Assembly (NCBI GenBank): GCA_047617785.1
Contig: JBLGBK010000002.1
Coordinates: forward strand, 1-64,000
DNA: 64,000 bases
Reading direction: 5' to 3'
Origin: Colwellia polaris
GTDB taxonomy: Archaea; Nanohalarchaeota; Nanosalinia; Nanosalinales; Nanosalinaceae
Each line of letters begins with the position of its first letter. The stretch's first letter is position 1. The translations under genes and the position numbers were made by a program. Under the pieces are notes generated by a model. It worked only from the letters and a program-made list of their open reading frames with translations, had not been told where the DNA came from and did no database searches. Positions 3,001 through 45,656 of the stretch are shown here, piece after piece.

Positions 3001-4693
3001 ATTAGATCTAGCCAGTTCAGAAGATAGCCTGTCAATATACCCTAGATCGCTAGAAGAAATTTTGAGGCCAAAAACCAGCACAGAGACGCAGTCAGCTTTA
3101 AGAAGGGCTTTATCTCAAGGATTAATCACAGAAGAGCAAAGCCTTACACAAGAGCTGCTTAAAAGAGTTACTAACGAGGAAATAGAGACTGAATCAAATA
3201 TGATTCAAGATCTATTGGCTCCAAGAGCTATTAATTCCAACATTGGATACGGAACCGGGCTTAGCTCAGGAATGACTCTCCAAAGACTAGTAATACAGAA
3301 TACAGGTTTAGTACCAGAACAATCAAGATCTTACAGCGGTGCCAGATACATTAGAACAGGAATAAGTATGGGCATAAGCGAGAGCAGCCGTTGGGGTTAT
3401 GAAATATTTGAAGCAGTAGTAAATACAGGAATAGAATTTAACCAAGACAATCAGAGAAGTATCTCCGTTCTCAGAGGAGTGACAGAGGAACTTGGCCTCG
3501 AATGGTTACTTGGCATCGCCACCCCAGGAACAGACGACGAAGAAAGCTCTGATGACGGGTCCAGCGGATCAGACGGAGACGGAGGATTCGGTGGCGGAAT
3601 AATAGATCCAGTAACAGGAAGCCCCGAGATATCTTTCACAGACGAAAGGTTAACATTCAAACTTTCACCTGGAGAATCCGCCTCCTCAGAGATAGAGCTT
3701 AGAAACACCGGAGATGCTGAAGCTGCAACCAACATAGAAATAGAGCGAGCTAATTCGCCTACAATAGATGCAATAAACTTACAGAAATATGAATACAATA
3801 TAGAGCCCGAGGGAACCATCCAACCAATAATAGACATAACAGTGCCCGAGTTCCTTGCCGACGAGAACCTTTCTGGCAGAGTTCTGGAGAGGAATATAAT
3901 AGCAACTTCAGGCGAAACAAGCGATGTCCTACCTGTTAACATCTTAGTTGAAGGAGAGGAAGAGGAGTTACTCGATGTTAGGATGAATATTCTAGATAAT
4001 ACAGTTACAGAGGGCGAAAACATAGATTACAACTTTGAAATTTTCAACCTAGGCCAAAGCGGAAGAGTAGATATACGACTCTACACTACTGTAACCAACA
4101 GTACCGGAAGCGTTATTCATGAAGAAAAGGAGGAAATTGCCGTCCAGACTTCAACATCAGTAGCAAGAAAACTAGATATTGATCTTGCTCCTGGACAGTA
4201 CAAGCTTGAAACAGAAGCTCGATATGCAGATAAGGACGCCTCGTCTTTCTCAACAATTACTGTAGAAGAGGCAGAAGAAGATCATAGCCTGCGGAATATT
4301 GCGGTAGCTCTTGGAATAGTGGTCCTTATGGTAGGATCAGCTATTATAGCCATCATAGGTTACCGTAGGAAAAGACGAACAGATTACGATAAGTTAATAC
4401 AGAGAAACGTTGATGAAATCAAGGAATACACAAAAGGTCATGAGATCAATTTCCGGAAGCTGCGTAAGGAAGAAGAAAAGCACAAAGACAGAACAGAACT
4501 AGAAGAGTGGGCTGCTAAGAGAGCACCATCTATGCAAACAGAGGAAGAAGATGAAGATAAATCCAGCGATAGTTCAAACTCTCACTCTCAAAATGAGAAA
4601 GAGAAAGACGTTCCAGATAATGTATGTGATGTCTGTGGCGAAGAATTTGAGAATGCCACAGGAGTGAGACTTCACAAACAGGCGATGCACTGA
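2..4693 (+). CDS. Large membrane-anchored surface protein (5' truncated by the window): 20-aa Arg-periodic repeat stalk, acidic/Gly linker, two Ig/CARDB-like domains, TM helix, cytoplasmic tail ending in a C2H2 zinc finger
   Basis: The frame is open from nt 2 (LVPTTNSFRTISSNRIEIV...), so the true start lies upstream of the window. TM IAVALGIVVLMVGSAIIAIIGY is followed by RRKRR; the C-terminus is CDVCGEEFENATGVRLHKQAMH. Confidence 0.85.
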   Translation, partial: LVPTTNSFRTISSNRIEIVTTSYSTTTSQISNLLRNEILQITSNQQTTRNTRINRLTEASLEIITAETGGFTGSRLISENIQSPESITSFSSLIRTQETSSVFLGIASRSISGDRIISEILPLDMQASRASNSARETNLETELSQSLSRTTLNLRDNIERIILESETTREAGVARIIQQQIVPEDQETITSTLARITKETFSPGITTERSTTLDRINTITTSYSTTTSQISNLLRNEILQITSNQQTTRNTRISRVIFDRVTSDTTEIRNILIQRVDQVGVESTVLNSQEVVNIRTVTEALVGEEAVNTGSNLGRLFTSEINTAITGSRTVLDQRNVQNQITATSNTLTALDVYRTLSESYTSIDRNFYRTSVGRTIEQQLEFNENIDIQSYVSRLNTDTFSGSIASSTLLSLNRDESLGLSLEADTLSSNMLSRIKAENLMVQGVISTESNLDRAVTEILSGTDNLITESWNKRFQSLNLGANTATNRNSALQRIAPQGITGSFISSRAVTVDRLLNNDLSVEMPGYRNLLQDRTVDSVLSISDTNTEALQYGRVIRDAIIQNDQNFGSSFLGRTLVQTLNLGENTTSGSALNRITTESVGTSTSIFSFSNIFRTEETPISSRNSIITSSDLVRSFGQNIYSASKATQSVAFPRIVEDQISYSAEILSDNFIKTVVELGIEAGTSDSRQSSSYRLVSDLTGINEEIFTASNLKRDLTPEIVSDITFNTQIFQTRDILTGLSFNEQSISTPRIIRSFEETWEISRSINLESALSRTIGETLEVNEEEIAFSNLARLTTEQINSEIVSQQTIAISRDVTTYLENTFSTDVVSDISRNRDISIQATSRIFSESLVNRNLVTDVDTTFNLARQALRPRTVEDIIRTTNAQQRTIVNIREVTQILQANSNIDRLERVNRLLTQEIENSILSQQSTNLNRLLSQDIGAENQFSRNLVTGRFLASSLQATPVEERSLALARFMESNIETEAITDQIVSAERTIMTGLDLASSEDSLSIYPRSLEEILRPKTSTETQSALRRALSQGLITEEQSLTQELLKRVTNEEIETESNMIQDLLAPRAINSNIGYGTGLSSGMTLQRLVIQNTGLVPEQSRSYSGARYIRTGISMGISESSRWGYEIFEAVVNTGIEFNQDNQRSISVLRGVTEELGLEWLLGIATPGTDDEESSDDGSSGSDGDGGFGGGIIDPVTGSPEISFTDERLTFKLSPGESASSEIELRNTGDAEAATNIEIERANSPTIDAINLQKYEYNIEPEGTIQPIIDITVPEFLADENLSGRVLERNIIATSGETSDVLPVNILVEGEEEELLDVRMNILDNTVTEGENIDYNFEIFNLGQSGRVDIRLYTTVTNSTGSVIHEEKEEIAVQTSTSVARKLDIDLAPGQYKLETEARYADKDASSFSTITVEEAEEDHSLRNIAVALGIVVLMVGSAIIAIIGYRRKRRTDYDKLIQRNVDEIKEYTKGHEINFRKLRKEEEKHKDRTELEEWAAKRAPSMQTEEEDEDKSSDSSNSHSQNEKEKDVPDNVCDVCGEEFENATGVRLHKQAMH
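57..759 (+). repeat. Exact 103-bp direct repeat (57-159 and 657-759), 600 bp apart, inside the surface-protein gene
   Basis: Identical sequence taacaacaagctac...cacaagaat in both copies; the offset equals 10 x 20-aa units. Confidence 0.95.
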
Positions 4694-5271: not shown

Positions 5272-5345
5272 TGGACCCTCAGGGATTTGAACCCTGGGCC
5301 TTCCGCTTGCAAAGCGGACGTTCTGCCAGACTGAACTAAGGGCCC
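5272..5345 (-). tRNA. tRNA-Ala(TGC)
   Basis: Reverse complement folds as a cloverleaf: acceptor GGGCCCT/AGGGTCC, anticodon arm TCCGC-ttTGCaa-GCGGA, T arm GGTTCAAATCC; no encoded CCA. Confidence 0.96.
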
Positions 5346-5683: not shown

Positions 5684-8853
<3,170 letters not shown>

Positions 8854-9653: not shown

Positions 9654-9728
9654 GGGCCCGTAGCTCAGCCTGGACAGAGCAACCGGCTTCTAACCGGTAG
9701 GTCGAGGGTTCAAATCCCCCCGGGTCCG
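9654..9728 (+). tRNA. tRNA-Arg(TCT)
   Basis: Acceptor GGGCCCG/CGGGTCC, anticodon arm ACCGG-ctTCTaa-CCGGT, T arm GGTTCAAATCC. Confidence 0.96.
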
Positions 9729-30533: not shown

Positions 30534-33500
30534 ATGAAGGAGAAAAAAAGCCTAATTATAGCCCTGACCGGCATACTTATCATTCCTTTAGCCTTGACTG
30601 CTTCAACAACTCTATCTAAGCAATCAGACTGGCAAGAAGGAGTATTTAAACAATCTACAGTCGACAGAGAGGATAATTCAGGCATTCTAGGGATAGGATA
30701 CGAAAATGGGACCTTGGAAGACCGTCTGAAAGGTTTCTGGAGACTAGACAAAACAACAGGCGATGTCATAGATTACTCTGAAGAAGGAAACAGTGGAGAG
30801 GCATACGGAGCTGATAGAAGTACAGAAGGAATACTTGGAACAAAGGGAACCCGTTTTGAAGGTAGTGCAGATGAAATAGTAATACCCGACGACTCGTCAC
30901 TGGACCTGAGCGAAGGATTCACTATCAACACCTGGGTGCAGGGAAATGAGATACTCGAAGTCGAGCCTTCTATGAGCAGCAACCCTGAAATATTCAGCAA
31001 AGGGAATTCCTACCGCCTTACAATCCAGAACGAAAATTACATAGCTTTCTCACAGAATTCTAACCTCAAACTAATGAACTCAACTGGTCACATAACTAAC
31101 CTCGGAGTCGACACCAAGGTCATAGGACCTCTATCAGACTATGACCGGGACGGATTAATTGACATACCTTATGTGGACGGTTCAGGCAACCTTAAAATAA
31201 TCAACAAGAACGGAAACACACAGAACCTAGAATCAGGAGCTAAGACTTCAAGTTCAACACTAGGAACAGGAGATCTTGACAGGGATGGAAGGAAAGAAAT
31301 TTACTACATCGACTCGTCTACCTCCGAAATCACAGGTTACAACTTCTCTTCAGGCACATCATCCCCAGTAGGAGCCGGAATAAAGAGTACAGCTATCTCA
31401 GGAGTTGCAGACTACGATGGAGATGGAAACAAAGATCTCGTCTTCCTTGACTCAGCGCAAACAATCAACTGGTACGATGGATCATCCGTACAGAGTACCG
31501 GTCTATCGATCGCAGGATCAAGCAGCTATCAGTACTGGATAGGCGGAACAACAGGGCCCGGAGTAGGAAAATATGCAAGCTCATGGACAGACCTCTCAGG
31601 AGAAGCAAATTCACCAACAAACAGCATTTACTCAGGAACTTATAACGGAAAGGCCTATTACCTAGGAGGTGGAAGCGGAGAAGTAACACGATGGGACGGC
31701 AGCTTCACAGATATCAGTCCAAGCTCAAGCAACAGTATAAATGCCATTTCATCAAGATCCTCTGAGGTAATGGCTGTAGCAGGAACAGATATTTTTCTAT
31801 ACGACACAAGTCAGGGGAGCTGGACACAGCCAACAACAGTAGACGCATCTGTAGATTCAGCTTCGAACTCTTACAGCAGTACAAATATTGGCGATTTCTG
31901 GCTTCTAGGACATGGAAGGACGAATCAACCTGGCGGAGTAAAATCTTATGTCAGCACCTTCGACGGCAGTACTGTCAATTACATAGACGGGGGATTCAGC
32001 AGCACAGTTACCGCGATCGACTTCAATGGAAATAAATATCTGACAGGGAGCAACAACGGGAGGTTGGCAACATATGACGGAACAAACTGGAATCAAATTA
32101 ACCAGAATAGTATAGGAACAGTTCATTCTATCAAGTGGGGAACCATAAACGGCGACTCATTTTGGCTTGTAGGCGGATCAAACGGAAATGTTCTGAAGGT
32201 GCAAGAGGACGGTACCACGACCACACTCAGCACAGGATTTGGGAACTCGGTAAGCTCAATCGGTTACTCTGGAGATAACGAAAAATTCTTGCTAGGAGAT
32301 GGAAACGGCAATGTAGCAAATTACACCTCAAACGGCCTCCAACAGACAAGCCAGAACGTATTCAGCAACTCTATAAGAACAATGATGTACAACCCAGCCT
32401 CATCAAGAAAGAAGATGGGAGAACCTTCAGATCTAGACAACGACGACGAAGTAGAGGTCCCTATTGTAACAGAGGGATCAGACCTGGCTCTCATACCTAG
32501 CTCAGGTTCAACTAACGTAATAGACTCAAGCTACGGAAGTGCAAAGGCTTCACCTCTAGGCACTGTTGACTGGACTGGAAACCCTTCAGAGGAAATCATC
32601 CATATCAACACTAACTCCGACACACTATATCTTTCAGATATCAGCGGTAACGAACAATCAATAACCGACTCAGGAGAGAACCAAGTAACCGGAATAGAAC
32701 AATCAACAGGAATATCCTCAGGCTCGATGCCCCAAGGAATACCTGTCCTCCAGATAAACGGACAGAAAGTACTGAACACCGGGGGTCAACCGCTCAATCC
32801 AGACAACTGGACAATGATAACCGCCAAATATGACGCCTCAACAGAGTCGGCCGAACTTTACTTCAACTCGACACTCATTGACTCAAAGACCGTCAATCTG
32901 GGAACAGTAAACCCGAATTCAAAAGACTTCAAGATAGCCAACGGAAAGCTTAACGCCACCATAGACGAAGTAAGAGTCTATAACGAATCTGTGACTTCAA
33001 GCCAAATAGACCGGCTATTCTTCAACGGAACTGATGGACAGTTCGATGGTGCCTACAACTCTACTATAGTAAATCCTGAAGGAAAGAAATCCTGGAGCCA
33101 ATTTATGATAGATGCCAATGAATCACCTGGTACCTCCGTTTCAGGTACAGTCTACTCTTTAGATGATGCTAATAATATCCTGAATGCCCAATCTATTACT
33201 ATCAATGACGGTAAAACTAACTACAGTATTTCAACTCTCCCAAATTCGAAGAAAATCAAGTTCTCATTCGACGGTTACAGCTCAGATATACAGAAGACCT
33301 GGGAGATTTTTGAGACACGTATATACTATGAAGACTCTCTAAAAGCAGGTAATATCACCAGTAGTGACTACAAAAACAAGCACAAGTTTAACATCTCAGC
33401 TACAGCCCGAGAAGCTGATTCAAACAGCAATATAAACGGATGTTCTGCCTATTATACCACTGATTCTCTCGAAGGTTATTTCGCAGTAGACGGAACGACT

Positions 33501-36500
33501 CTAAACTTAAGCTTTGGAAACGATAACCACGTCTCCTGTAACGCAACCATTGGTCCTGATCTAACTACCGTAGGCTACGGAGGAAGTAATTCTCCTCAGG
33601 CGACATTTAAGTTCAATTTCACGGATAACGACGGTTACACTGTCGGAACCATAAACCAGACAGAAACACTTCCGAACAACCAGCCAATCATCCTGAAAAC
33701 TAACCAGGAGGGCTCCTCAACAGACCACAGCTTCAATTTCTCAGCAGTAGCGAAGGATCAAGATGGTTCAGGAGACATCACCTCTTGCACAGTATACGCA
33801 GAGGACAATGATGGAAACCAGTATACAGCAAGTAATCTCAACACCTCATATGGAACCAGCACACAGGCATCATGTAACGCAACTATTTCGAGCTCCATAA
33901 ACGGTCTGGAAGTGGGAGAAGACATTCAGATGTACGCAGATTTCACCGATGTAGCAGGTACAACCTCATCGACCGCCATCTACACGCAGTCAATCCCTAA
34001 TCACAATCCAGAAATCGAGAGCGGTCCTAATCTTGAGAAAGTTTCAGGAGAACATGCCTTCAGCGTCTCAGCTGTAGCTTCGGACACTGATTCTGGAAGT
34101 TCTGAAATCAACTCATGCACAGTATACGCAGAAGATGGAGACGGAAACACCAAGGTTTTCTCAGGTTCAGGCCTTGTAGATCAAAGCTACGGAACAACAG
34201 ACCAGGCAAGCTGCAATACCTCCATAAGTAATTCTATAGAGAACTTCACTGTAGGGGAATCTATCACTGTTGACGTCAGCTTCTCTGATAAGCACGGAGC
34301 ACAGACAACAAACAACACTGGTACGAAAACAATACCTAACACGGCTCCAAGCAAACCCACAAACCTAAACATGACATACTTCCTACAAAACAACGCAGAT
34401 ATAAACCACGTAATAGACCACACACCAAAGATAAACTGGACCAATCCAACAGACCCAGAAGGAGACGCTATTACGATTAAAGCCTATACCGAGTCTTCAG
34501 CTAATCCTAACCAGCTGGACAACCAAACTAATTCAAGTTCAAGGCTAACTCTCGGGCAGAACATAGGTCTTAACGATGGAACCAGCTACAATGTAAGCCT
34601 TAGAGCATGCGATCCTTACAGCTGCAGCAACTACACCAACAACACAGAATTCACAATGAATGAAGAACCTTCTATCGAATCAGTAAGTCTGAATTACTCA
34701 AGCGTGACGGGAAGCGACTCTGTCAAACTGCAGGCAAACATTACCGACACAGACGATATTGACTCGGCGAACTACACATTATACAACCAGAGCTCGGGCG
34801 ACTTGATATATTCCAACAGTGAAGGGACTCTATCAGACCAGCTCTGGAACTCTGACTCCTTCGAAGTGCTCGCAGGAAACACTTACAACTGGACATTAAA
34901 GACCTCAGACGGATACCAAACAAGTAGCACAACAGGAACTTTCAGCGTATCAAACAGTCCTCCAGAAATACTTGAACCTCTTAATACTAGTGAATACTCC
35001 AATGCACATAAATTCAACGTATCAGCAGTAGCCTACGAACCTGATGGAGAAGTAAATATCAACAAATTCAACATAACACTTAATGATGGAGACGGAAACC
35101 AAGTCACATTCACAGAAAACGTGACAAAAAGCTACGGAAACAGTAGCGAAGTTGCAGCAAACTTCTCAAACGTAAACAGCTCGATTACCAGTGGATTTGA
35201 AATAAACGAAGAAATCAGCGTATCTATCAAATTCATCGACAAAGGTGGTAAAACAGCCTCGACCTCCGGAAACCAGAGAATACCGAACCAAGTTCCCGAG
35301 GTACCTCAGAACTTAAACATGACATACTTCCTACAAAACAACGCAGATATAAACCACGTAATAGACCACACACCAAAGATAAACTGGACTAATCCAACAG
35401 ACCCCGAGAATGATTCCGTAACCATCAAGGCTTATACAGGTCAGTCATCCCGCCCTACATCACCAGACAACAGCCTGAACCTGGGAAGCAACTACAGCAA
35501 CTCAGCAAGTCTAGACTTAGGTAACAGTGTAAGTCTAAGTGATGGAACCAGCTACAATGTAACTTTGATCGCATGTGATGATTACGGATGCAGCTCCAGA
35601 TCTGAAAATATAGAGTTCCACATGAACGAGGAACCAAACATAGAGAATACAGCACTCAACGACTCAAGCCCAACAGGAAGCGACTTCGTCAAACTACTAT
35701 CAAATGTGACAGATAACGAAGATTCAATTTCAGATGTTGCGTTTACGGTCTGGAATACAGATTCGAACAACAAAATAATTTCAAAGGAGCAGGGAGAGAA
35801 AATTGAGGGAGAATGGAATTCAAAAGAGTTTGAAGTCTTCGCATCCACCTCTTACAACTGGACAGTCAACGCAACAGACGGATACCAATACACTCTAGAC
35901 ACCGGAACCTTCAATGTCCCGAACAGCGGGCCTTCGATGGTATCAGGACCAAGCTTCCAGGACTATCAAGAAGGGCATAAATTCAACGTATCAGCAGTCG
36001 CAAAAGACGTTGACGGACAGGAAAACCTCGCCAACTACACAATACAGCTGGACGACGGAGAACAAACATATGAATATACAAAAGACGTGACCAGAAACTT
36101 TGGTAGCTCCAATGAGGTCGCAGCAAACTTCTCAAACGTAAACACCTCAATAGAAGGATTTGAAGTTGGAGAAACAATCTTCGTAACCTTAATATTCCGA
36201 GATAAATCTGGAGAAACCGCACAGAACTTTGAAAGTAATACTATACCCAACCATAAGCCCTCTTCAGCCTCAGAAATCAACATGGTAGAGCTACTAGAGC
36301 CGGGTACAGATCTACAGCACGTGATCGATCAGCAGCCAGAGATAAAATTTACAGCGCCCTCAGACCCTGACAAAGATAATATCACCTTCAGCATCTTCAC
36401 CGAATCCTCCTCTAACCCCTCACAACTAGACCGAGAAGTACTGATAACAGAAAATAACTACAGTAAAAGCCAGGAGATCGAGATAGGAAACCAGGTAAAC

Positions 36501-39500
36501 CTCAACGATGGAATTAGCTACAACTTCTCAGTTCAGGCCTGCGATCAATTCGGAAGCTGCACAACGAAAAGAAACATACAGGAGTTCCACACAAATCAGG
36601 AACCAACATTCAACTCTGTGGAGCTCAACAAATCAAGTTCAAATCTTGCAGATGGCGATAAAGTCCATCTTAAAGCCAATATTTCAGATGCAGAATCAGA
36701 TAGTATCGACTGGGCAAACTTCACAGTATACAATCAGACTGACAACGACAGACTAATCGACTCACTTAATGGATCAATAAACCAGAACGGAACCTGGATA
36801 TCAGATACATGGACCGTATCCACAGGAACGACCTACAACTGGACAGTCAACGCAACAGACGGATATGAAACCTCAGATACCTCAGGAACCTTCAAAACAA
36901 ACAATTCAAACCCCGAGATAGTTTCAGGACCAAGCTTCGATAATCTAGAAGGTAGACATGCCTTCGATGTGTCCGCAGTGGTCAGCGACGCAGACGGAGA
37001 AACAGATCTTGCAGATTATACGCTCATCCTAGAAGACGGAGACGGGAACCAGAAAACAATCGAGAAATCCATAACCAACACCGGTTATGGAAACTCAAAC
37101 GAAGCCACAATAAATTATTCAAGCGTGAACACTTCGATAAGCAACTTCCAAGTCAACGATGAGATACAGGCCACAATCACGGTAAGAGATACCTCAGGGG
37201 CTTCAGCCCAGACGCCGACAGAATCAAATACGATACCTAACACAGCTCCAAGCAAACCCACAAACCTAAACATGACATACTTCCTACAAAACAACGCAGA
37301 TATAAACCACGTAATAGATCAAACTCCGGAGATAAACTGGACTAATCCAACAGACCCCGAGAATGATTCCGTAACCATCAAGGCTTACACAGGACCTTCT
37401 CTGACGCCCACAAATCTCGACAACAGCATCTCAGGAGACAACAAGCTTTCGCTTGGACAAGAAGTCGAGATATTGGATGGGGATACCTACAATGTAAGAC
37501 TTCAGGCATGCGACCCCTACGAATGCAGCAGCTATACCAGCAATATCGAGTTCACAATGAACCAGGAACCTTTCATTGAAAGCGTGAAAGCTAACACCTC
37601 TCAAATAACTGGTTCAGACCAGATAAAGCTCGAAGCGAATATAACAGACAATCAAGACAGCATCAAGTGGGCAAACTTCACAGTATACAATCAGACTTCA
37701 GGAGAACTACTATTCCAGAACAAGAAAGGAACTCTAAACTCCGAACTCTGGACCTCAGAATCTTGGGAGACAAGATCTGACACGACCTACAACTGGACAG
37801 TCAACGCAACAGACGGATATCAGACAACCTATACTACCGGAACAATCACAGTAAACAACCAGCAACCAGACATAACAGATCTTTCCACAGAAAATTACCA
37901 AAATGGTCACAAGTTTAACATCTCAGCTACAGCAACAGATGCAGACGGTGCGATAAACATAGATCAATTCAATATAACATTAAGTGACGGAGACGGAAAC
38001 CACGAGGATATAAGGGCCTCAGTAAACCGCGACTTCGGAACTGAAAATCAGGCCGCACTCAATTACTCCAATATCAACGCTTCATACTTCCCTGACTTCG
38101 AAGTCGAGGAGACTCTCAGCATAGATGTAGAGGTTATCGACAGATCAGGAAGCTCATCAACATCATCTACAGAGAGCGCAATACCTAACCACGCGCCTAA
38201 CCTACCACAGAACCTTGAACTTGAAGTCGGAAACAAGAATTACGTGGTAAACCACAGCTTCAAGATCAATTGGACCGCACCCTCCGACAGCGATAACGAC
38301 AACCTCACAGTAAGGGCACACCTTGGAACCGATCAAGACCCGCTCACAGTAGAAAACAGCACCTCAATTACGCCGGGTAACTATGGAGAGGTAGACGAAC
38401 TTATCCTAGGAGGTAACAATGTTAATCTCCAGGACAACCAGGATTACAATATAGATCTGGTTGCGTGCGATAATTGGAGCTGTACATCTAGAGACACGAA
38501 TGCATCATTCCACATGAACCAAGAACCAAGGGTAGAATCAGTAAGACTCAATGAATCAGTAACAGAAGAAGCAGAATGGATCAAACTAATAGCGAATGTA
38601 ACACCAACAGACAATCCTATAAACGCAGCATTCTACGAAATCTGGAATCAGAGCTCACCACAACAACTTGTAGATGAAAAAATAGGATCAAGCGATGGAA
38701 AAACTTGGAATTCATCTAATTTCTACGGTAAATCGCTGCAGACCTACAACTGGACTTTCACAGCGAGCGACAGCTACGAAAACACAACATTAATGGACGT
38801 ATTCGACGTAGGGAACGCAGATCCAGAAATAACGAGAAGCATACAAACCTCAGACTTGAGCGATGAACACGGCTTCAATATCTCTATGAAAGTGAGAGAC
38901 CTAAACGGAGACAACGATCTCGCCAACTACACAGTAATAGCAGATGATGGAAACGGCAATACTCACCGCTACAAAGGAACATTCGCAGAAAATGGAGACG
39001 AATATGCATGGGCTAATTATTCGAACATAAACTCGAGTATTCCAGATTTTGAAGTAGGAGAAACGATATCTGTACAGATAATCGCAAGAGACCAGCATAA
39101 TCTGAAAGCATATTCTTCAACAGTATCGAACACAATACCTAATAGACAGCCTGTAATAACAGATATCAAACTGAAACCAGATAATCCTACGACAGAAGAC
39201 ACCCTGAACATCACCTATAAGGCCGAGGATCCAGAAAACGACACAATTACCAACAGCTTCTACGAATGGACCTCCAACTCATCCACCGTGTCCTCAAAGA
39301 TAGTCTCACCGACAGAAACTTCAAAAGACCAGCACTGGAATCTGAGTCTTCAGATAGTAGACGAGTACAACACATTAAGCCAAGAAAACACTTCACAGGA
39401 AACACTTGTAATCCAGAACTCTCCACCAGAAATCGCAAGAGCTCAAGAAGTAGAAAATGTAAGCAGAGAACATGCATACACAGTTTCAGCAATAGTTCAG

Positions 39501-42500
39501 GATCCAAATGGGGAAACAGACCTCGATGCCAACTGCGAAGTAACCGTAGAACATGAGACAAACAGCACAACAGCAACAAAGGCTATAGATACATCTTACT
39601 CCGGATCAGAAAAAGCCAAATGCGCCTACACAGTAAGCGCAGAAGATAAAAGCTGGATAAAACCAGGAGAAAAAGTAAACACAACCTTCAAGTTCACCGA
39701 TCAGAGCTCAGGAACTACAAGCACCAGTAAGAAGTCTGCAGAAGTTCCTAACAGAAAACCAAAAGTAACAGAACTAACAGCGCCATCTAACAACTCAGAA
39801 ACCAACAAGACAGAACTCAAATTTGATTGGAAAGCTCAGGACCCTGAGAAAGACAACCTAGAATACAAACTGAAAATATTCAATGAAACAGAAAATATAA
39901 TTACAGAAAAAGGTCTCACAAAGTCAGAAAAAGCTATTAGCAGCCTTCAGAGCTCAAATATAAAATGGCAGGTCACAGCCACAGATATCTACGGTGGGGA
40001 AACACTTTCATCTAGCACCTCCGAAAACTCAACAGTAGTTGTAGACTCAAAAGCTCCAGAAATTGTTGAAGGTCCAGCCATAGAGGTTATAAACTCTTCC
40101 AGAGATTACCCGCAACAAAATCAATCTGTAAAATGCTACTCGCGATGGCAGGACAACTTTGAACTAGGTAGCGCAAAAATATACGAAAACGCTACAGAGA
40201 CCAACCACACCATAACATCTAGCGACTTCAGTTCAGGATGGGCGAACGTAACAATCGCTGCAGGAGATCTAGAGGCCGGCAAGATAAGCTGCACCACCTA
40301 TGCTTCAGATCATCTCGACAATAAAGCATCAGACAGCAACACCTTCGAGGTAGAGGACATAGAGAAACCAAATATGACCGACTTCGATTACAGCCCTAAG
40401 ACTCCTGAAAAACTCGACCCCCAGAACCCTGTGGAAGTCAGCGCAAAGATAACCGACAACCTGAAGATAGAAAATGTTTCTCTTCTCTACCGTAAAGAAA
40501 ACGAGGAGAGCTGGAACTACGGCAACATAACGAATTCTGGAGATCTCTACACAGGAAACTTCACTCCTCAAACAGATAGTGCGACATACGACTTCAGACT
40601 CAAAGCTGTTGATACATATAATAACACCGAGGTTAGGAAAGCCTCCGTTAATGTAAGCTGGGATTATACCTGGAGCGGCTCACCTTCCGAATACAGCGGT
40701 TCAAGCACACTACAGGATAATTTAGTTGATTATACGCCGATAAAGATAGAGAATACTGGCGATTTCCCTCTCAAATACAACATAACTGCCGATACCGAAT
40801 CTAACCTGAACCTTAATATAGGAGATAGAGAATTTATCATCCCCTCCTCCGAATCAAAATCAATAAGTGTTGAAGCAAGTTTAGAAGAGAACAACGCTGA
40901 TGACGAAGGTATATACTCCTTCGATATAACTGTAAACTCTGAAAACACAACTGCTAACCCTTCACAGGGAACTATAGAAAGTCAGGCAACTTTCACTCTA
41001 GATGCCCCGTTCCTATCAATGGAGAAAGCTTCAAAATTCCCACTATCAGCATCGCAGGGAACAACAGGCGTTGAACTTCCTGTAGATACCACCAACGTAG
41101 GTACACAGTCAGCAGAAGGAGGCAGCATAAGCTACGAAATCCCAACCTCCTGGGAATTAAGCAGCGGAAACCTCAACCAAGAACTTGGAGATATGAATGT
41201 TGACGAGACAGAAACCTCGAGCATCAGTGTCAACATACCCGGAGATACTTCTACAGGAACTAAACAAATAAACATGACTGCAACCACCACAAACAGAACC
41301 TTTAGTCAAAGCTTCCAGATAGATATCACAGAGAATGAGACAACCACAATTGTCGAAGACGGTGGTGGAGGAGGCTTCGGAGGAGGTTCCGGCCCGACTT
41401 CACAAGAACAGGTTGAACAACGTTCAGATCAGATTTTCAACACCAGCGAAAGCTTTGAAATTGTAAGAGGAGAAGACCAGAACTTCACAGTTCGTTTCCA
41501 GAACCCTACAAAATTCAACCTCACCAATATAACCGCAAACGTTGAGGGAATCCAGTCTCAATACCTCCAACTAGAAAACCCATATCTTGGAAGAGTGAAT
41601 ATAAACGAATCAAAGAACATCACCGTGAAGATAACCGCCCCAGAATACTTCCAAACCGGCAATTACAACTTGAATTTCAACATCACCGGAAAAGGCATCG
41701 ACGGACAAGGCGCATTTGCAGACCATTTCGGTTTCACACTGAACAAGGATATATCTCTCGGAGTAAGAGCTATTCCACGACAGAATGCCTCCACCTACCT
41801 TAATGAAACCAAAGAAATTCTCAATCAGATGAATAGAAGCAACCTAAGAACAAGCGAGATTGAAGAGCTTATCAGCGAGGCAGAGAACAATATCGAATCC
41901 GGAAACTATGCAGAAGTGCAGAAAAGCTATCAAGAAGCACAGTCAAGATACCAGACTGCCCAAGAAACACGCCAAGGCCTGACAGAGCTTGAAAGCCAGA
42001 TTAATTCAGCTGAAGCATCAGGACTCGATGTCGGACGCGCTCGACAGGTCGCAAGCCTAGCAGAGGCAGCCATGGAAAGAGGTGCGTACACAACAGCTGC
42101 CGATAGGCTGGAGGAAGCTCAGAACATCTACCAGTTGGAGACTGCGGGAGAAGTTAACTGGATCTATGAGATCCGGTCCAATTGGAAGAAGATACTATCC
42201 GGACTAATCATAATAGGAATAGCCGGATTCTTGGCGCGACTAAGGTATCGACTCTACAGAATCAGAAGCAGACTGAAAGATCTCAAGTCAAAGGAGAAGA
42301 ACATAGAAGACCTCAAAATACAGAAACAGAAGAAAGCATTCGAAGAGAAAGATATCTCGCTTTCAGAATACGAGGATAGCATAGAGGACTACAACAACCA
42401 GATTATCGAAATAATCGAAGAACGTGTCGCATTACAGGCGGAAGAAGCTAATATAAGCAACTTCAAGAGACGCAACAGCCTAGCGCAGGAGAGAGATCGT

Positions 42501-42722
42501 CTCAACGAACTTATCAGAGAGACACAACAAGACTATATCAAAGGAAATATCAGCGACACAGACGTATATGAGAAGAAAGTTGAAGAGTTAACCGGCCGGC
42601 TTTCAGAGATTGAAGGAGAAATAGCGGAGATAGATGCAGAGGCAGAAGTAAGATCAGAGAGCCGCCTAGGTCGGATAATGGAGAAAATACCGATAATTTC
42701 AACAGGAGGTAAAGTGCAGTGA
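30534..42722 (+). CDS. Giant (4062 aa) cell-surface adhesin-like glycoprotein: signal peptide, LamG/ConA-like and beta-propeller head, repeated Ig/FnIII-like modules, helical stalk, TM, cytoplasmic coiled coil
   Basis: N-terminal signal; FWRLD...FTINTWV...IDEVRVYN (LamG); DxDxDG Ca-binding loops; five ~320-aa modules with ACDxxxC; very many N-x-S/T sequons; TM ILSGLIIIGIAGFLA near 42190-42240. Confidence 0.88.
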   Translation: MKEKKSLIIALTGILIIPLALTASTTLSKQSDWQEGVFKQSTVDREDNSGILGIGYENGTLEDRLKGFWRLDKTTGDVIDYSEEGNSGEAYGADRSTEGILGTKGTRFEGSADEIVIPDDSSLDLSEGFTINTWVQGNEILEVEPSMSSNPEIFSKGNSYRLTIQNENYIAFSQNSNLKLMNSTGHITNLGVDTKVIGPLSDYDRDGLIDIPYVDGSGNLKIINKNGNTQNLESGAKTSSSTLGTGDLDRDGRKEIYYIDSSTSEITGYNFSSGTSSPVGAGIKSTAISGVADYDGDGNKDLVFLDSAQTINWYDGSSVQSTGLSIAGSSSYQYWIGGTTGPGVGKYASSWTDLSGEANSPTNSIYSGTYNGKAYYLGGGSGEVTRWDGSFTDISPSSSNSINAISSRSSEVMAVAGTDIFLYDTSQGSWTQPTTVDASVDSASNSYSSTNIGDFWLLGHGRTNQPGGVKSYVSTFDGSTVNYIDGGFSSTVTAIDFNGNKYLTGSNNGRLATYDGTNWNQINQNSIGTVHSIKWGTINGDSFWLVGGSNGNVLKVQEDGTTTTLSTGFGNSVSSIGYSGDNEKFLLGDGNGNVANYTSNGLQQTSQNVFSNSIRTMMYNPASSRKKMGEPSDLDNDDEVEVPIVTEGSDLALIPSSGSTNVIDSSYGSAKASPLGTVDWTGNPSEEIIHINTNSDTLYLSDISGNEQSITDSGENQVTGIEQSTGISSGSMPQGIPVLQINGQKVLNTGGQPLNPDNWTMITAKYDASTESAELYFNSTLIDSKTVNLGTVNPNSKDFKIANGKLNATIDEVRVYNESVTSSQIDRLFFNGTDGQFDGAYNSTIVNPEGKKSWSQFMIDANESPGTSVSGTVYSLDDANNILNAQSITINDGKTNYSISTLPNSKKIKFSFDGYSSDIQKTWEIFETRIYYEDSLKAGNITSSDYKNKHKFNISATAREADSNSNINGCSAYYTTDSLEGYFAVDGTTLNLSFGNDNHVSCNATIGPDLTTVGYGGSNSPQATFKFNFTDNDGYTVGTINQTETLPNNQPIILKTNQEGSSTDHSFNFSAVAKDQDGSGDITSCTVYAEDNDGNQYTASNLNTSYGTSTQASCNATISSSINGLEVGEDIQMYADFTDVAGTTSSTAIYTQSIPNHNPEIESGPNLEKVSGEHAFSVSAVASDTDSGSSEINSCTVYAEDGDGNTKVFSGSGLVDQSYGTTDQASCNTSISNSIENFTVGESITVDVSFSDKHGAQTTNNTGTKTIPNTAPSKPTNLNMTYFLQNNADINHVIDHTPKINWTNPTDPEGDAITIKAYTESSANPNQLDNQTNSSSRLTLGQNIGLNDGTSYNVSLRACDPYSCSNYTNNTEFTMNEEPSIESVSLNYSSVTGSDSVKLQANITDTDDIDSANYTLYNQSSGDLIYSNSEGTLSDQLWNSDSFEVLAGNTYNWTLKTSDGYQTSSTTGTFSVSNSPPEILEPLNTSEYSNAHKFNVSAVAYEPDGEVNINKFNITLNDGDGNQVTFTENVTKSYGNSSEVAANFSNVNSSITSGFEINEEISVSIKFIDKGGKTASTSGNQRIPNQVPEVPQNLNMTYFLQNNADINHVIDHTPKINWTNPTDPENDSVTIKAYTGQSSRPTSPDNSLNLGSNYSNSASLDLGNSVSLSDGTSYNVTLIACDDYGCSSRSENIEFHMNEEPNIENTALNDSSPTGSDFVKLLSNVTDNEDSISDVAFTVWNTDSNNKIISKEQGEKIEGEWNSKEFEVFASTSYNWTVNATDGYQYTLDTGTFNVPNSGPSMVSGPSFQDYQEGHKFNVSAVAKDVDGQENLANYTIQLDDGEQTYEYTKDVTRNFGSSNEVAANFSNVNTSIEGFEVGETIFVTLIFRDKSGETAQNFESNTIPNHKPSSASEINMVELLEPGTDLQHVIDQQPEIKFTAPSDPDKDNITFSIFTESSSNPSQLDREVLITENNYSKSQEIEIGNQVNLNDGISYNFSVQACDQFGSCTTKRNIQEFHTNQEPTFNSVELNKSSSNLADGDKVHLKANISDAESDSIDWANFTVYNQTDNDRLIDSLNGSINQNGTWISDTWTVSTGTTYNWTVNATDGYETSDTSGTFKTNNSNPEIVSGPSFDNLEGRHAFDVSAVVSDADGETDLADYTLILEDGDGNQKTIEKSITNTGYGNSNEATINYSSVNTSISNFQVNDEIQATITVRDTSGASAQTPTESNTIPNTAPSKPTNLNMTYFLQNNADINHVIDQTPEINWTNPTDPENDSVTIKAYTGPSLTPTNLDNSISGDNKLSLGQEVEILDGDTYNVRLQACDPYECSSYTSNIEFTMNQEPFIESVKANTSQITGSDQIKLEANITDNQDSIKWANFTVYNQTSGELLFQNKKGTLNSELWTSESWETRSDTTYNWTVNATDGYQTTYTTGTITVNNQQPDITDLSTENYQNGHKFNISATATDADGAINIDQFNITLSDGDGNHEDIRASVNRDFGTENQAALNYSNINASYFPDFEVEETLSIDVEVIDRSGSSSTSSTESAIPNHAPNLPQNLELEVGNKNYVVNHSFKINWTAPSDSDNDNLTVRAHLGTDQDPLTVENSTSITPGNYGEVDELILGGNNVNLQDNQDYNIDLVACDNWSCTSRDTNASFHMNQEPRVESVRLNESVTEEAEWIKLIANVTPTDNPINAAFYEIWNQSSPQQLVDEKIGSSDGKTWNSSNFYGKSLQTYNWTFTASDSYENTTLMDVFDVGNADPEITRSIQTSDLSDEHGFNISMKVRDLNGDNDLANYTVIADDGNGNTHRYKGTFAENGDEYAWANYSNINSSIPDFEVGETISVQIIARDQHNLKAYSSTVSNTIPNRQPVITDIKLKPDNPTTEDTLNITYKAEDPENDTITNSFYEWTSNSSTVSSKIVSPTETSKDQHWNLSLQIVDEYNTLSQENTSQETLVIQNSPPEIARAQEVENVSREHAYTVSAIVQDPNGETDLDANCEVTVEHETNSTTATKAIDTSYSGSEKAKCAYTVSAEDKSWIKPGEKVNTTFKFTDQSSGTTSTSKKSAEVPNRKPKVTELTAPSNNSETNKTELKFDWKAQDPEKDNLEYKLKIFNETENIITEKGLTKSEKAISSLQSSNIKWQVTATDIYGGETLSSSTSENSTVVVDSKAPEIVEGPAIEVINSSRDYPQQNQSVKCYSRWQDNFELGSAKIYENATETNHTITSSDFSSGWANVTIAAGDLEAGKISCTTYASDHLDNKASDSNTFEVEDIEKPNMTDFDYSPKTPEKLDPQNPVEVSAKITDNLKIENVSLLYRKENEESWNYGNITNSGDLYTGNFTPQTDSATYDFRLKAVDTYNNTEVRKASVNVSWDYTWSGSPSEYSGSSTLQDNLVDYTPIKIENTGDFPLKYNITADTESNLNLNIGDREFIIPSSESKSISVEASLEENNADDEGIYSFDITVNSENTTANPSQGTIESQATFTLDAPFLSMEKASKFPLSASQGTTGVELPVDTTNVGTQSAEGGSISYEIPTSWELSSGNLNQELGDMNVDETETSSISVNIPGDTSTGTKQINMTATTTNRTFSQSFQIDITENETTTIVEDGGGGGFGGGSGPTSQEQVEQRSDQIFNTSESFEIVRGEDQNFTVRFQNPTKFNLTNITANVEGIQSQYLQLENPYLGRVNINESKNITVKITAPEYFQTGNYNLNFNITGKGIDGQGAFADHFGFTLNKDISLGVRAIPRQNASTYLNETKEILNQMNRSNLRTSEIEELISEAENNIESGNYAEVQKSYQEAQSRYQTAQETRQGLTELESQINSAEASGLDVGRARQVASLAEAAMERGAYTTAADRLEEAQNIYQLETAGEVNWIYEIRSNWKKILSGLIIIGIAGFLARLRYRLYRIRSRLKDLKSKEKNIEDLKIQKQKKAFEEKDISLSEYEDSIEDYNNQIIEIIEERVALQAEEANISNFKRRNSLAQERDRLNELIRETQQDYIKGNISDTDVYEKKVEELTGRLSEIEGEIAEIDAEAEVRSESRLGRIMEKIPIISTGGKVQ
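34332..37387 (+). repeat. Near-exact DNA repeat patches among adhesin modules
   Basis: 34332-34417 vs 37233-37318 (1 mismatch); 34366-34441 = 35314-35389; 35378-35434 = 37331-37387. Confidence 0.9.
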
Positions 42723-44002
42723 AGAAGACAACAATTCTGCTGACACTTGTACTTTTCACAGGCTTAACAACAGCACAGTCAGCGAACGAAACACAGCAAG
42801 CACTTCAACAAGCTGAAAGCGACATCCAGTTGATGGAGGAAGAAGATATACCAACTGAACGAGTTACGAATCTCTTAGAAACAGCGAACAACTCCTATCT
42901 TGCGCAGAGAAACTTTGAGAATGAAGGAGGAACTGCAGATTACTCGCGCGTCAAGGAGCTTACCCAACAGATCAGCGATATACAGGAGAGAGCGATAAGA
43001 GTCTCCGACAGGATAAGCGCACTGGATATGAGATTGAAAGAGCTGGAAAACACAAGCGTCAACCTTTCATCAGCGGAAAACGAACTAAATGCTGCAAAAG
43101 ATGATTTCCAAAGCCAGAGATTTGAGGAGGCGGAGGGTCATGTCGAATCAGGCTATTCAGCGATATCCGAGGCACAGTCCGCACGTACACAGGTAGAGAG
43201 CTTTGCCGCAGCACAGCAGGAAGACATAGTGGCACAGATAAACATATTTATAGATTATCTGAGAGCAAATCCTACTAAAGTCGGCGGAAGCACAGCTCTC
43301 GGACTTCTAGCCATGATATCATTCTGGAAGGAGTTCAACACATATCGACTGATTAAACGAAGAAAGCGGAAAACCGTCAAAGAAGAAGTTCTGGAGCGTT
43401 TGATTACAGACAGCCAAAAAGAGTACTACATGCGGAAAGAAGGCTCACCTATACAGTTCAACACCAAGATGAACCGATTCGAGGATCTACGGAGAAACGT
43501 AGTCGAAGATATCGAAATAATAGATGGTAAACTGGAGAACCGGCACTCTCTACTCTTTGATCCGGAAGAACCTACGCAGGAAGAAGTCGAAATTGATGAA
43601 ACAATAGAAGAATCGGCAGAAACTGAAAAAGAAGAACAAGTGAAGAAAGAACAGGAGCAGCAAAAGCCCGTAGAAGTAATTGATACCGAAGACGAAACTG
43701 AAGATCAAACCGAGGAGGTCAGCGAAAGCAGCAAAAATGAAGAACAGGAAGAAGCTGAAGACACACAGGATATGGATAACGAAGAGAGTGAAGACAAGGA
43801 AGAGGAAAGTGAAGAGAACAACGAGCTAGTATGTGATGAATGTGGCGAAGAATTTGAAACAGAGCGCGGACTTAGCATCCACAGAGAAAGAACTCATGAT
43901 TCAGAGATTCAGGCCGAAGGCGTTGTATGTCCTGTATGCGGAGATGTTTTCGATACTGAAAGAGGCATGCATATCCACAGAGGAGAAGTTCACAAGGATT
44001 AG
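42719..44002 (+). CDS. Membrane protein resembling the adhesin anchor module, with an acidic tail and two C2H2 zinc fingers
   Basis: Signal peptide, helical ectodomain, TM, acidic linker, CDECGEEFETERGLSIHRERTH and CPVCGDVFDTERGMHIHRGEVH; GTGA start/stop overlap with the adhesin gene. Confidence 0.85.
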   Translation: MKKTTILLTLVLFTGLTTAQSANETQQALQQAESDIQLMEEEDIPTERVTNLLETANNSYLAQRNFENEGGTADYSRVKELTQQISDIQERAIRVSDRISALDMRLKELENTSVNLSSAENELNAAKDDFQSQRFEEAEGHVESGYSAISEAQSARTQVESFAAAQQEDIVAQINIFIDYLRANPTKVGGSTALGLLAMISFWKEFNTYRLIKRRKRKTVKEEVLERLITDSQKEYYMRKEGSPIQFNTKMNRFEDLRRNVVEDIEIIDGKLENRHSLLFDPEEPTQEEVEIDETIEESAETEKEEQVKKEQEQQKPVEVIDTEDETEDQTEEVSESSKNEEQEEAEDTQDMDNEESEDKEEESEENNELVCDECGEEFETERGLSIHRERTHDSEIQAEGVVCPVCGDVFDTERGMHIHRGEVHKD

Positions 44003-44994
44003 AACATTCCTCCGGAATCATCGTTTCCGCTTCCGAAGAAGTTGTCATTATGTCTGACATTTAATCCCAGTCCGCCTTCTATTGTCATTGGTGCGATCTT
44101 CTCTTCAAAGTTAGTACCACGCATCTTGTAAATCTGTATTCCGCGTGAGCTCTGCTGCTTGTACATAAGGATTACTCCATCAGCTAGGAACTCTGCATGG
44201 CCTGTTTCAGTAATCTGATCCGGTATAGTCTGAGATTCAGCAATTACAAAGGATGTAACACCAATATCGCGGAAGAGATCGAACAGTTCTCTAACATATA
44301 GCCTGTAGTTCTTGGACTTTTCTGAAAAGCCTGCTGAGATAGCTGATAGTGAGTCAACGATTACACGGTCGAAGGATTCTTCATCCTCATCTAGATCGCC
44401 AAACATCAGCGGTTTAGTATCGATTTCGAGCTCTCCGCTCTGTTTCTTGAACAACGCTTCTACTGTACGGGATACGTCGAACGGGTCGTACGTTTCAATT
44501 ACTAAATTGCCGTCATCAACGTGCTTCTGCCCGTCCCAGCCGAAGTCTTCCATGTGGCTAATTAAAGCGTCTGGCGATTCCTCGAAGCTCATGAATAGTA
44601 CTTTTTCGCCGTTTTCAGCAGCATGGTTGGCCATATGAAGGTTGAATATTGATTTACCCGATCCTGGGTTTCCTGCGATTAATGTAACGTTCCGCTTTCT
44701 TATTCCATCGCCGAAGAGATTATCGATTCCGTTTATACCTGTACGGAGATAGTTTTCTTTCTTGCCTGCTGATATTCCGTCGTCATCTTCCTCGGATGAG
44801 TTATCGCTTCCGTCGTCGTTGTTGAATTCTGACCATGGGTTCTCATCTTCAGAATCACTATCAACTTCTGAGTCTTCCTGCCATTCTCCGACTCTGTTCG
44901 GGTTAATATCTTCGTGTTTTGCGGAGACATGGGCTTTCAATGCTTTCAAAGTTGGAAAGTCATGGCCACATTTCTTACACTCCATGGTGTTCAT
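43999..44994 (-). CDS. KaiC/RAD55-like (COG0467) ATPase with an N-terminal C2H2 zinc finger
   Basis: CKKCGHDFPTLKALKAHVSAKH; TGINGIDNL, GNPGSGKS, SFEE, VIVDSL, ADGVI, KMRGT. Confidence 0.92.
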   Translation of the reverse strand: MNTMECKKCGHDFPTLKALKAHVSAKHEDINPNRVGEWQEDSEVDSDSEDENPWSEFNNDDGSDNSSEEDDDGISAGKKENYLRTGINGIDNLFGDGIRKRNVTLIAGNPGSGKSIFNLHMANHAAENGEKVLFMSFEESPDALISHMEDFGWDGQKHVDDGNLVIETYDPFDVSRTVEALFKKQSGELEIDTKPLMFGDLDEDEESFDRVIVDSLSAISAGFSEKSKNYRLYVRELFDLFRDIGVTSFVIAESQTIPDQITETGHAEFLADGVILMYKQQSSRGIQIYKMRGTNFEEKIAPMTIEGGLGLNVRHNDNFFGSGNDDSGGMF

Positions 44995-45101: not shown

Positions 45102-45656
45102 ATGGAATTTCCTGAAGAACTTGAAGAACTGGAAAGGGGAAAACCAGTATTTGTATCAACAGAGTCTCCTGATCTACGAGAACTTGTAAACACGCTTATA
45201 GAGAAAATTACAGAGGATGAAAAGCTTGTAGTGTATATAGGAAGTATTAAAACCAGTAAGAAAGTCAAAAGCATGCTGAAAGAAAGAGATATAGACCTGA
45301 AGAAGATTCTATTCTTCGACATGGCAACAAAGGTTACAGGCTCAGCTCCTGACGACGTGGAAAACACTGTATTCTTCGACCCTGAAGATATCAACCAGGT
45401 TAACATGCAACTCGACGACGCGGTAGACGCAGTACCAGAAGACCGAGAAGCCGTGATAGTATTCGACACAATATCAACACTGTCAATATACAACGATAAA
45501 GAAGTAATAATCAAGTTCTTGAAAAGCCTGAGTTCAAAGATGGATAACTGGGACGTATCCTCAGTTCTACTCGGAGTAGAGAGCGAAATGAGCGACGAAC
45601 TTACGGAGGCTGTGGAAGATTCTGTTGAAGAAACAATCGATGCAACCAGCGAATAG
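45102..45656 (+). CDS. Inactivated KaiC/RecA-fold protein (DUF835/DUF7504-like)
   Basis: Retains VVYI, ILFFD, VIVFDTISTL and IIKFL elements but has no Walker A; divergent from the KaiC-like gene. Confidence 0.7.
   Translation: MEFPEELEELERGKPVFVSTESPDLRELVNTLIEKITEDEKLVVYIGSIKTSKKVKSMLKERDIDLKKILFFDMATKVTGSAPDDVENTVFFDPEDINQVNMQLDDAVDAVPEDREAVIVFDTISTLSIYNDKEVIIKFLKSLSSKMDNWDVSSVLLGVESEMSDELTEAVEDSVEETIDATSE

Follow-up and report, generated by a model that had tools for sequence, protein, structure and literature searches.

Classical C2H2 zinc fingers of the TFIIIA/Zif268 type (the PF00096/PF13894 clan) are treated as a domain of eukaryotic transcription factors. Four fingers of this kind are encoded in the stretch of nanohaloarchaeal DNA analysed here, the first 64,000 nucleotides of one contig (C2:1-64000, hereafter the window) of a 787-kb genome in 22 contigs (G000) whose nearest named relatives are Candidatus Nanohaloarchaea metagenome-assembled genomes, 'Nanohaloarchaea archaeon SG9' and Ca. 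Nanohalobium. One finger ends a giant surface protein ('fibre'), two end a membrane protein that we call the anchor, and one begins a KaiC-like ATPase. With the classical family they share the C-x2-C-x12-H-x4-H spacing, a Phe/Leu core and a predicted beta-beta-alpha fold, and their profile matches fingers of solved structure; they differ in being single or double, without arrays or TGEKP linkers, and in their place at the termini of proteins, most of them membrane proteins of an archaeal phylum, where they are borne on acidic tethers. As described below, the C2H2 finger is a small portable end-module across Nanohaloarchaeota, and we suggest that it may act as a cytoplasmic docking tag. We found no literature description of C2H2 fingers on nanohaloarchaeal or archaeal membrane proteins; the haloarchaeal zinc-finger work in PMC11241148 deals with C(P)XCG micro-proteins.

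Several described systems resemble parts of this arrangement. Bacterial RadA/Sms has the same order of N-terminal zinc finger and RecA-like ATPase as the window's ATPase, residues 5-141 of which weakly match TIGR00416. The match reaches 34 bits against a cut-off of 403, however, and the window protein is a single-domain member of the KaiC family, whereas Sms combines a C4 finger with a Lon-like domain. ToxR/CadC-type regulators, a comparison drawn from general knowledge, place an N-terminal cytoplasmic domain of nucleic-acid-binding type before one membrane helix and an outer sensor, the order found in 22 of the 37 membrane carriers described below; their winged helix domain has been shown to bind DNA, whereas the nanohaloarchaeal domain is a single C2H2 finger on an acidic linker whose DNA binding is putative. 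In Haloferax volcanii, CdpC joins a membrane-binding end through a long disordered linker to a terminal zinc ribbon that binds FtsZ1, according to its preprint (bioRxiv 10.64898/2026.07.16.738847). The likeness to CdpC is one of layout (membrane attachment, long disordered linker, and a small terminal zinc domain docking a cytoplasmic protein): its zinc ribbons are C3H and C4 rather than C2H2, it binds the membrane through an amphipathic helix, and it is one protein whereas the nanohaloarchaeal finger is a tag on many. The layout nevertheless provides a precedent for reading the finger as a docking module. Finally, the 4062-residue giant encoded next to the anchor shares with the membrane-anchored SPEARE giants of Nanohaloarchaeota, as presented in the main text of PMC6642349, an outside-helix-cytoplasmic tail layout; the words 'zinc' and 'KaiC' each occur 0 times in that main text, which gives no description of finger tags, anchor or ATPase.

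Four C2H2 fingers in the window

The fibre finger, CDVCGEEFENATGVRLHKQAMH (4625-4690, + strand), forms the 22-residue C-terminus of open frame 2..4693, and the protein stops at the last zinc-ligand His. The two anchor fingers, CDECGEEFETERGLSIHRERTH (43832-43897, +) and CPVCGDVFDTERGMHIHRGEVH (43928-43993, +), lie in open reading frame (ORF) 42719..44002, and the KaiC finger, CKKCGHDFPTLKALKAHVSAKH (44914-44979, -), occupies residues 6-27 of ORF 43999..44994. When scored with a profile of the genome's ten fingers, they reach 50.3 bits (E 3e-13), 54.5, 57.5 and 51.5 bits, respectively. All four match the pattern C-x2-C-x3-F-x5-[LVM]-x2-H-x4-H exactly and at the positions assigned in an initial annotation of the window, which had also described the acidic linkers that are seen on reading the sequences. 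The spacing C-x2-C-x12-H-x4-H is likewise kept in 4/4 window fingers and 10/10 genome fingers. Given the composition (GC 43%; Asp plus Glu 17.8% and Cys 0.65% of residues), the pattern would be expected by chance 2e-5 times in the crude proteome of 862 ORFs and 0.007 times across six frames of the 787-kb genome, and was observed 10 times; the four window fingers are real, and the number is far above chance.

Among the Pfam models, zf-C2H2_4 passes its cut-off of 27 on the anchor (27.9 bits) and is below cut-off or without a match on the other eight carriers of the genome. The ten-finger profile, when compared with PDB, matches the classical fingers of Aart (E 1e-15), SALL4, PRDM9, ZNF568 and 1MEY. 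AlphaFold models the anchor tail as two independent beta-beta-alpha units (pTM, the predicted template modelling score, 0.36), with a confidence (pLDDT, the predicted local distance difference test) in 10-residue blocks of 81-89 across the fingers (87-89 for finger 1 and 81-89 for finger 2), except for a value of 70 in block 51-60, which covers the last part of finger 1 together with the spacer that leads to finger 2. Residues 1-28 of the KaiC-like protein are modelled as a beta-beta-alpha finger with a pLDDT of ~70. The top Foldseek matches in PDB are all C2H2 arrays (CTCF, SALL4, Aart, Tramtrack and Zif268; best E 2e-3, probability 1.0), and the hydrophobic core is well kept over 67 fingers, of which 97% have Phe at position 8 and 95% have L/M/V at position 14. 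Because the pattern, the chance estimate, Pfam, the PDB profile search, AlphaFold and Foldseek agree, we regard the window fingers as a real classical C2H2 domain with a predicted beta-beta-alpha fold.

A portable end-module across Nanohaloarchaeota

A regular expression and the genome's own profile agree on 10 fingers, carried by 9 ORFs at 8 places in the genome. The earlier idea that two loci share a tag was thus right about the sharing and too narrow about the loci. Seven of the nine carriers are membrane proteins, the others being the KaiC-like ATPase and a stand-alone finger of 27 residues that is the whole protein. The finger is C-terminal on the fibre, the anchor (two fingers), a 131-residue protein with two membrane helices and an 891-residue surface protein on contig C7 (CarboxypepD_reg, with CARDB below cut-off), whose finger is near-identical to that of the fibre. 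It is N-terminal on the KaiC-like ATPase, on a 125-residue protein with a C-terminal membrane helix, and on two DsbA/Thioredoxin_4 proteins, types A and B, in both of which it lies ahead of the membrane helix. A C2HC motif, CPYCGKEYSDENQWYKKHVRSC (C3:29643-29708, -), at the C-terminus of a 468-residue soluble ORF, was considered as an eleventh finger and rejected as a different zinc-finger type; this ORF is primase-like by eye.

Beyond this genome, the ten-finger profile has matches of E <=1e-4 in 68/70 genomes of the phylum, among them 28/28 of the high-quality ones, with 1-10 matches each, as against a single match, in 1/5 genomes, among the five other DPANN genomes used as outgroup. PF13894 gives matches in 41/41 genomes of the order (7 over cut-off) and in 2/14 control genomes (0 over cut-off). 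We read every match retrieved from ten genomes: G000, the single-contig genomes G008, G012, G016 and G019, and G026, G028, G029, G031 and G032 from three other families. After removal of duplicates (L135 = L127, L136 = L129), they hold 59 distinct finger ORFs, a set outside which stand two degenerate fingers of the G012 giant.

The carriers are strikingly varied. The finger is kept as recurrent orthologous groups on DsbA types A and B, a ~130-residue two-helix protein, an 890-990-residue surface protein and the giant fibre, and as a stand-alone finger of 27-34 residues. In relatives it is also carried by ~145-residue winged helix-turn-helix (wHTH)-like proteins, at either end, by wHTH coiled-coil proteins, by PLDc_N proteins with a zinc ribbon, by proteins with thioredoxin/glutaredoxin ectodomains, by an ATP synthase subunit D with a C-terminal finger (PF01813, 190 bits; L118:1501-2235, G031) and by a MinD/ParA-type ATPase with two C-terminal fingers (L143:727-1599, G029), where fingers pass the models zf-C2H2_jaz and zf-met, which are of double-stranded RNA type. 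Throughout, it lies at the extreme N- or C-terminus, and in the window carriers and many others it is borne on a disordered acidic tether. The fingers are one shared module on tethers and are not borne on classical multi-finger transcription factors, as had been proposed; the further suggestion that they mark attachment loci or KaiC is not supported, given carriers such as the two DsbA-like oxidoreductases, the small one- and two-helix proteins, the stand-alone finger and the unrelated proteins of relatives. A scatter over unrelated proteins, one half of what had been named as evidence against a shared docking or localisation code, is indeed seen, yet together with enrichment on membrane proteins.

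Many membrane proteins with an N-terminal finger have thiol-redox ectodomains (L001:4515-5417, L001:14904-15725 and L127:187-1710, and others in relatives), comprising the two DsbA types and thioredoxin plus glutaredoxin. These domain matches hint that the tag may be connected with the folding of secretory proteins.

Membrane association and sidedness

A membrane-like helix is present in 37/59 finger ORFs of the ten genomes and missing from 22/59, compared with 32% of the 862 crude G000 ORFs at the same hydropathy threshold (binomial p 1e-6, a value inflated by kinship of the genomes). Together with the seven of nine carriers in G000, this bears out the membrane bias first noticed in the window. 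In 22 of the 37 membrane carriers the finger precedes the helix, and in 15 it follows it. Over 39 helix rows, K/R is more frequent on the finger side than on the other in 35; 3 rows are poorer on the finger side and 1 is a tie. One of the three poorer rows is the window anchor, for which the script used the signal peptide. The anchor has no transmembrane helix above the threshold of the hydropathy scan; its likely helix, VGGSTALGLLAMISFW (43283..43330, +), falls below it and is followed by KEFNTYRLIKRRKRK, and with this helix the count becomes 8 K/R in the 15 residues after it, on the finger side, vs 2 in the 13 residues before. For the fibre, the scan places the helix at residues 1433-1449 of the open frame (4298..4348, +), with 6 K/R in the 15-residue flank on the finger side vs 1 on the other.

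The fingers of membrane carriers thus lie on the K/R-rich side of the helix, presumably in the cytoplasm. Fingers that face outward were considered and are contradicted both by this bias and by the topology of the DsbA-type carriers, the ectodomains of which must face outward.

Conserved surface and base-contact positions

An N-terminal finger is present in 41/95 homologues of DsbA type A; nearly all of these finger-bearing homologues have alignments that span most of the query, and those with names come from nanohaloarchaea. Across these 41 DsbA-type orthologues, the mean frequency of the top residue is 0.73 in the finger, 0.36 in the linker and 0.69 in the thioredoxin domain. A logo of the 67 fingers reads C-[DEP]-x-C-G-[EK]-[ES]-F-D-[ST]-E-R-G-L-[HK]-[IVL]-H-x4-H, and the consensus F-D-[ST]-E-R-G-L-H-[IV]-H is repeated on unrelated carriers. 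Such conservation of exposed residues across unrelated proteins fits a common ligand.

The helix positions that read bases point in another direction from that of a transcription factor. In Zif268 numbering, positions -1, +3 and +6 of the 67 fingers are S/T in 87%, G in 73% and I/V/L in 79%, residues that are poor for base contacts under the established recognition rules for Zif268-type fingers, and for this reason the fingers are probably not sequence-specific DNA readers. Nor do they form the tandem base-reading arrays of C2H2 transcription factors: eight of the nine carriers in the genome have one finger, and most carriers elsewhere likewise have a single finger and no TGEKP-type linker. 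The KaiC finger had been described as Lys-rich, which is so in this genus; its orthologues range from ~+4 to -3 in net charge (counted by eye).

A second portable module

Fingers are not the only such end-module. A helical stretch of ~48 residues, GT[IV]xExK..V....D[FY]..LL..E...KNRKTLK.FL, which we call the KNRK module, ends the ribosomal proteins eL31, eS24 and, more weakly, uS3, and a 354-residue wHTH coiled-coil protein of G000 (loci L154 C17:2743-3165, L155 C4:37688-38128, L156 C1:87650-88735 and L153 C5:23055-24116; further bearers are L012:6018-6350 and L028:2087-2428). Like the finger, it sits on acidic tethers, and the two are interchangeable: G031 and G032 have homologues of the 354-residue protein (BLASTP E 2e-22 and 8e-13) whose last module is a finger, and the KNRK module replaces the fingers on the anchor tails of G008 and G024, which belong to another genus. 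A 119-residue protein (L144) combines both modules, as does the N-extension of KaiC in G025. The KNRK module is found in 40/41 relatives with 1-11 matches each (4-11 except in the 61%-complete G025), and 1 weak match occurs in the 5 other DPANN genomes. It matches no Pfam family; weak resemblances are to DUF8129 (Atlas, score 0.78) and to the C-terminal helix of eL6 (PDB 9eho_E, E 0.019).

The anchor-KaiC cluster in relatives

The order seen in the window, with a giant surface protein, the anchor, a convergent KaiC gene and a degenerate KaiC-like gene, is the same or mirrored in relatives G002, G001, G008 and G024. Anchor and KaiC are convergent neighbours in G039 and G025 as well, and they are adjacent in the 6 nanohaloarchaeal loci read. 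KaiC orthologues (E <1e-40) and matches to the anchor ectodomain (E <1e-29) are found in the same 8/41 relatives, whereas fingers are found in 41/41, and five complete finger-bearing genomes have no KaiC orthologue at E 1e-20.

The window ATPase is part of an older DPANN-wide module consisting of a giant surface protein, a headless anchor and KaiC. Using a hidden Markov model (HMM) built from an alignment of 8 anchor orthologues, we searched 80 KaiC-homologue loci from nanohaloarchaea, Woesearchaeota, Aenigmatarchaeota, Nanoarchaeota and others. An anchor-like ORF lies <=4 kb from the KaiC homologue in 34 of the 80, 5 of them nanohaloarchaeal, a count limited by contig ends, and 18 of the 34 have a second match to the model. 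Within this module, the finger is present only in nanohaloarchaeal members: 0 true C2H2 fingers were found in the 74 outgroup loci L043-L116, and the KaiC finger is kept in 18/18 nanohaloarchaeal orthologues listed and 0/102 other homologues. The N-extensions of outgroup KaiC homologues are instead Lys-rich (P0058) or give weak HTH-type matches.

The end of the anchor tail varies among close relatives. It has two fingers in G000 and G002, nothing in G001 of the same genus, two copies of the KNRK module in G008 and G024, and nothing in G039, G026 and G025, such that anchor fingers are confined to one genus, in which G000 and G002 have them and the third genome lacks them. This distribution, together with the presence of fingers in every relative and of the cluster in only eight, does not support a tag private to the attachment locus.

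A candidate docking tag and its alternatives

From its portability, its terminal position on tethers, its conserved exposed residues and its interchange with a second module, we propose that the finger is a promiscuous cytoplasmic docking or address tag with one common protein or ribonucleoprotein ligand, a reading to which we give a probability of roughly 0.45. We consider a protein or ribonucleoprotein hub more likely as the ligand than a specific DNA sequence. The finger would bring the cytoplasmic end of its carrier to this common ligand; in the window, the fibre and the anchor would be tagged on their inner tails and the KaiC-like ATPase would have a diverged N-terminal copy. The shared docking code put forward in the initial annotation is supported in part: it is retained here as a single tethered module with conserved exposed residues, and is not supported as an attachment code specific to one locus. 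KaiC itself was considered as a common hub for the fingers and rejected, with an orthologue in only 8/41 relatives.

A number of observations weigh against a docking tag. C2H2 fingers most often bind nucleic acid, several of the soluble carriers are DNA-linked (the wHTH-like proteins and MinD/ParA), DsbA type B has a conserved basic helix directly after the finger, and 4/11 long KaiC homologues outside the phylum have sub-threshold HTH-type matches at their N-termini. The conserved surface residues could serve folding or zinc affinity instead, and charge arguments are weak at molar intracellular salt. The hydropathy scan and the gene calls behind the enrichment statistics are crude, and the genomes are related to one another; outside the 59 ORFs there are three soluble carriers with looser fingers, namely one coiled-coil protein with an N-terminal finger and two proteins with an atypical H-x8-H, and one further match that is a C4 ribbon.

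Several of these points belong to a different reading, in which the finger binds nucleic acid, the single-helix proteins with N-terminal fingers are ToxR-like regulators with a sensing, often thiol-redox, ectodomain, and the surface tails tether DNA or RNA at the membrane. We consider this reading somewhat unlikely. Nucleic-acid binding is the commonest role of the fold, and the nearest solved structures (CTCF, SALL4 and Zif268) are DNA-bound; the fusion of fingers to MinD/ParA and to wHTH-like proteins, the N-termini of outgroup KaiC homologues with their weak HTH-type matches, the basic helix of DsbA type B and the passing of zf-C2H2_jaz and zf-met by some fingers (L143) are all in its favour, as is the interchangeable KNRK module, which ends ribosomal proteins and weakly resembles the eL6 helix. 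The S/T, G and I/V at the base-contact positions, the fact that most carriers bear only one finger, on a tether that is strongly acidic, the presence of the tag on proteins with no apparent need for DNA (ATP synthase subunit D, for example) and the lack of known target sites argue the other way. A finger that has no ligand at all, and serves either as a fast-folding zinc knob to stabilise or cap an acidic tail or as a topology plug against being pulled through the membrane, would explain why it is always terminal and always on the cytoplasmic side, often after an acidic stretch, and why the anchor of close relatives does without it; acidic tails are also generally prone to export under the membrane potential. 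We judge this very unlikely in view of the 22/59 carriers without a membrane helix, the existence of stand-alone fingers, and exposed helix residues that are conserved like a catalytic domain. The convergent arrangement of the anchor and finger-bearing KaiC genes, their adjacency in six loci and their exact co-occurrence in relatives would suit a private attachment code in which the fibre and anchor fingers dock to the neighbouring ATPase or to its finger, but six relatives (G001, G008, G024, G039, G026 and G025) keep the cluster with no anchor fingers, the outgroup loci have no true fingers, fingers are far more widespread than KaiC orthologues, and five complete genomes have the former without the latter. 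Such a code is highly improbable.

The docking-tag reading can be extended to a phylum-specific address system of two modules, in which the finger and the KNRK module would bind each other or one hub and thereby couple ribosomes and cytoplasmic machines to the inner envelope of these ultra-small cells; we regard this extension as doubtful. The proteins so marked would be membrane proteins, secretory oxidoreductases, giant adhesins, ATPases (KaiC, MinD and ATP synthase subunit D) and ribosomal proteins (eL31 and eS24).

The C2H2 finger is a routine building block of an archaeal phylum, with 1-10 copies per ~1 Mb genome, mostly on the inner ends of envelope proteins that include giants thought to mediate host contact. 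If there is one shared ligand, its identification would show how these symbionts connect, on the cytoplasmic side, their surface machinery with secretory folding enzymes and possibly with ribosomes, and would give a non-DNA role to the oldest known zinc-finger fold.

Gene organisation of the window

The fibre is represented in the window by its C-terminal 1563 residues (2..4693, +), the frame extending past the window start. After the membrane helix, its tail is basic and then acidic before it reaches the finger. An orthologue in G012 (L016, G012:C1:929500-946000) has 3574 residues and the same C-terminal region, and its tail has two degenerate fingers, in which the second His is out of place or absent, and beyond them a basic coiled coil.

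The 4062-residue giant (30534..42722, +) has FG-GAP_3 and NPCBM_assoc matches, a C-terminal membrane helix and a cytoplasmic coiled-coil tail without a finger. Its C-terminal part is homologous to a giant ORF that adjoins anchor and KaiC in genome SG9. A 4,057-residue protein of SG9 is named SPEARE 2 in the main text of PMC6642349 (Hamm et al. 2019), and from size and organism we infer that it is the same protein as this ORF.

The anchor (427 residues; 42719..44002, +) comprises a signal peptide, a helical ectodomain, the likely membrane helix, conserved juxtamembrane helices, an acidic linker and the two fingers. The linker, low in complexity and covering about residues 285-371 (43571..43831, +), is variable in the 8-orthologue alignment, and the acidic lead-in is modelled with a pLDDT of ~60.

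The KaiC-like gene (43999..44994, -) is convergent with that of the anchor, and their 3' ends overlap by 4 bases. It encodes a single-domain ATPase of 331 residues (PF06745, 142.7 bits vs a cut-off of 26.6) with the N-terminal finger, an acidic linker at residues 29-79 (44758..44910, -; pLDDT <50) and a KaiC/RecA-like ATPase domain at residues 84-314 (44053..44745, -), whose Walker A motif GNPGSGKS is invariant in the KaiC alignment. With one domain and 331 residues, as against two tandem domains and ~500 residues, the protein is not circadian KaiC proper, and the NCBIfam KaiC models score 112 vs a cut-off of 408. Inside the otherwise variable linker, NPWS[DE]FN is kept in 10/14 shown orthologues at >=67% identity and may be a linear binding motif.

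Beyond the KaiC-like gene, the cluster has a conserved neighbour, a 184-residue degenerate KaiC-like protein (45102..45656, +), which gives weak KaiC, DUF835 and DUF7504 matches, all below cut-off; homologues lie on the KaiC side away from the anchor in G008 (with two small ORFs between), G002 and G001. The cluster is followed by a 1221-residue helicase ORF (45700-49365, +) with an apparent large insertion that, by eye, has intein-like ends and homing-endonuclease-like sequence. No match to 16S or 5S was found within the 64-kb window, and a complete 23S rRNA gene lies at 5798-8752 (+), flanked by tRNA genes at 5272-5345 (-) and 9654-9728 (+).

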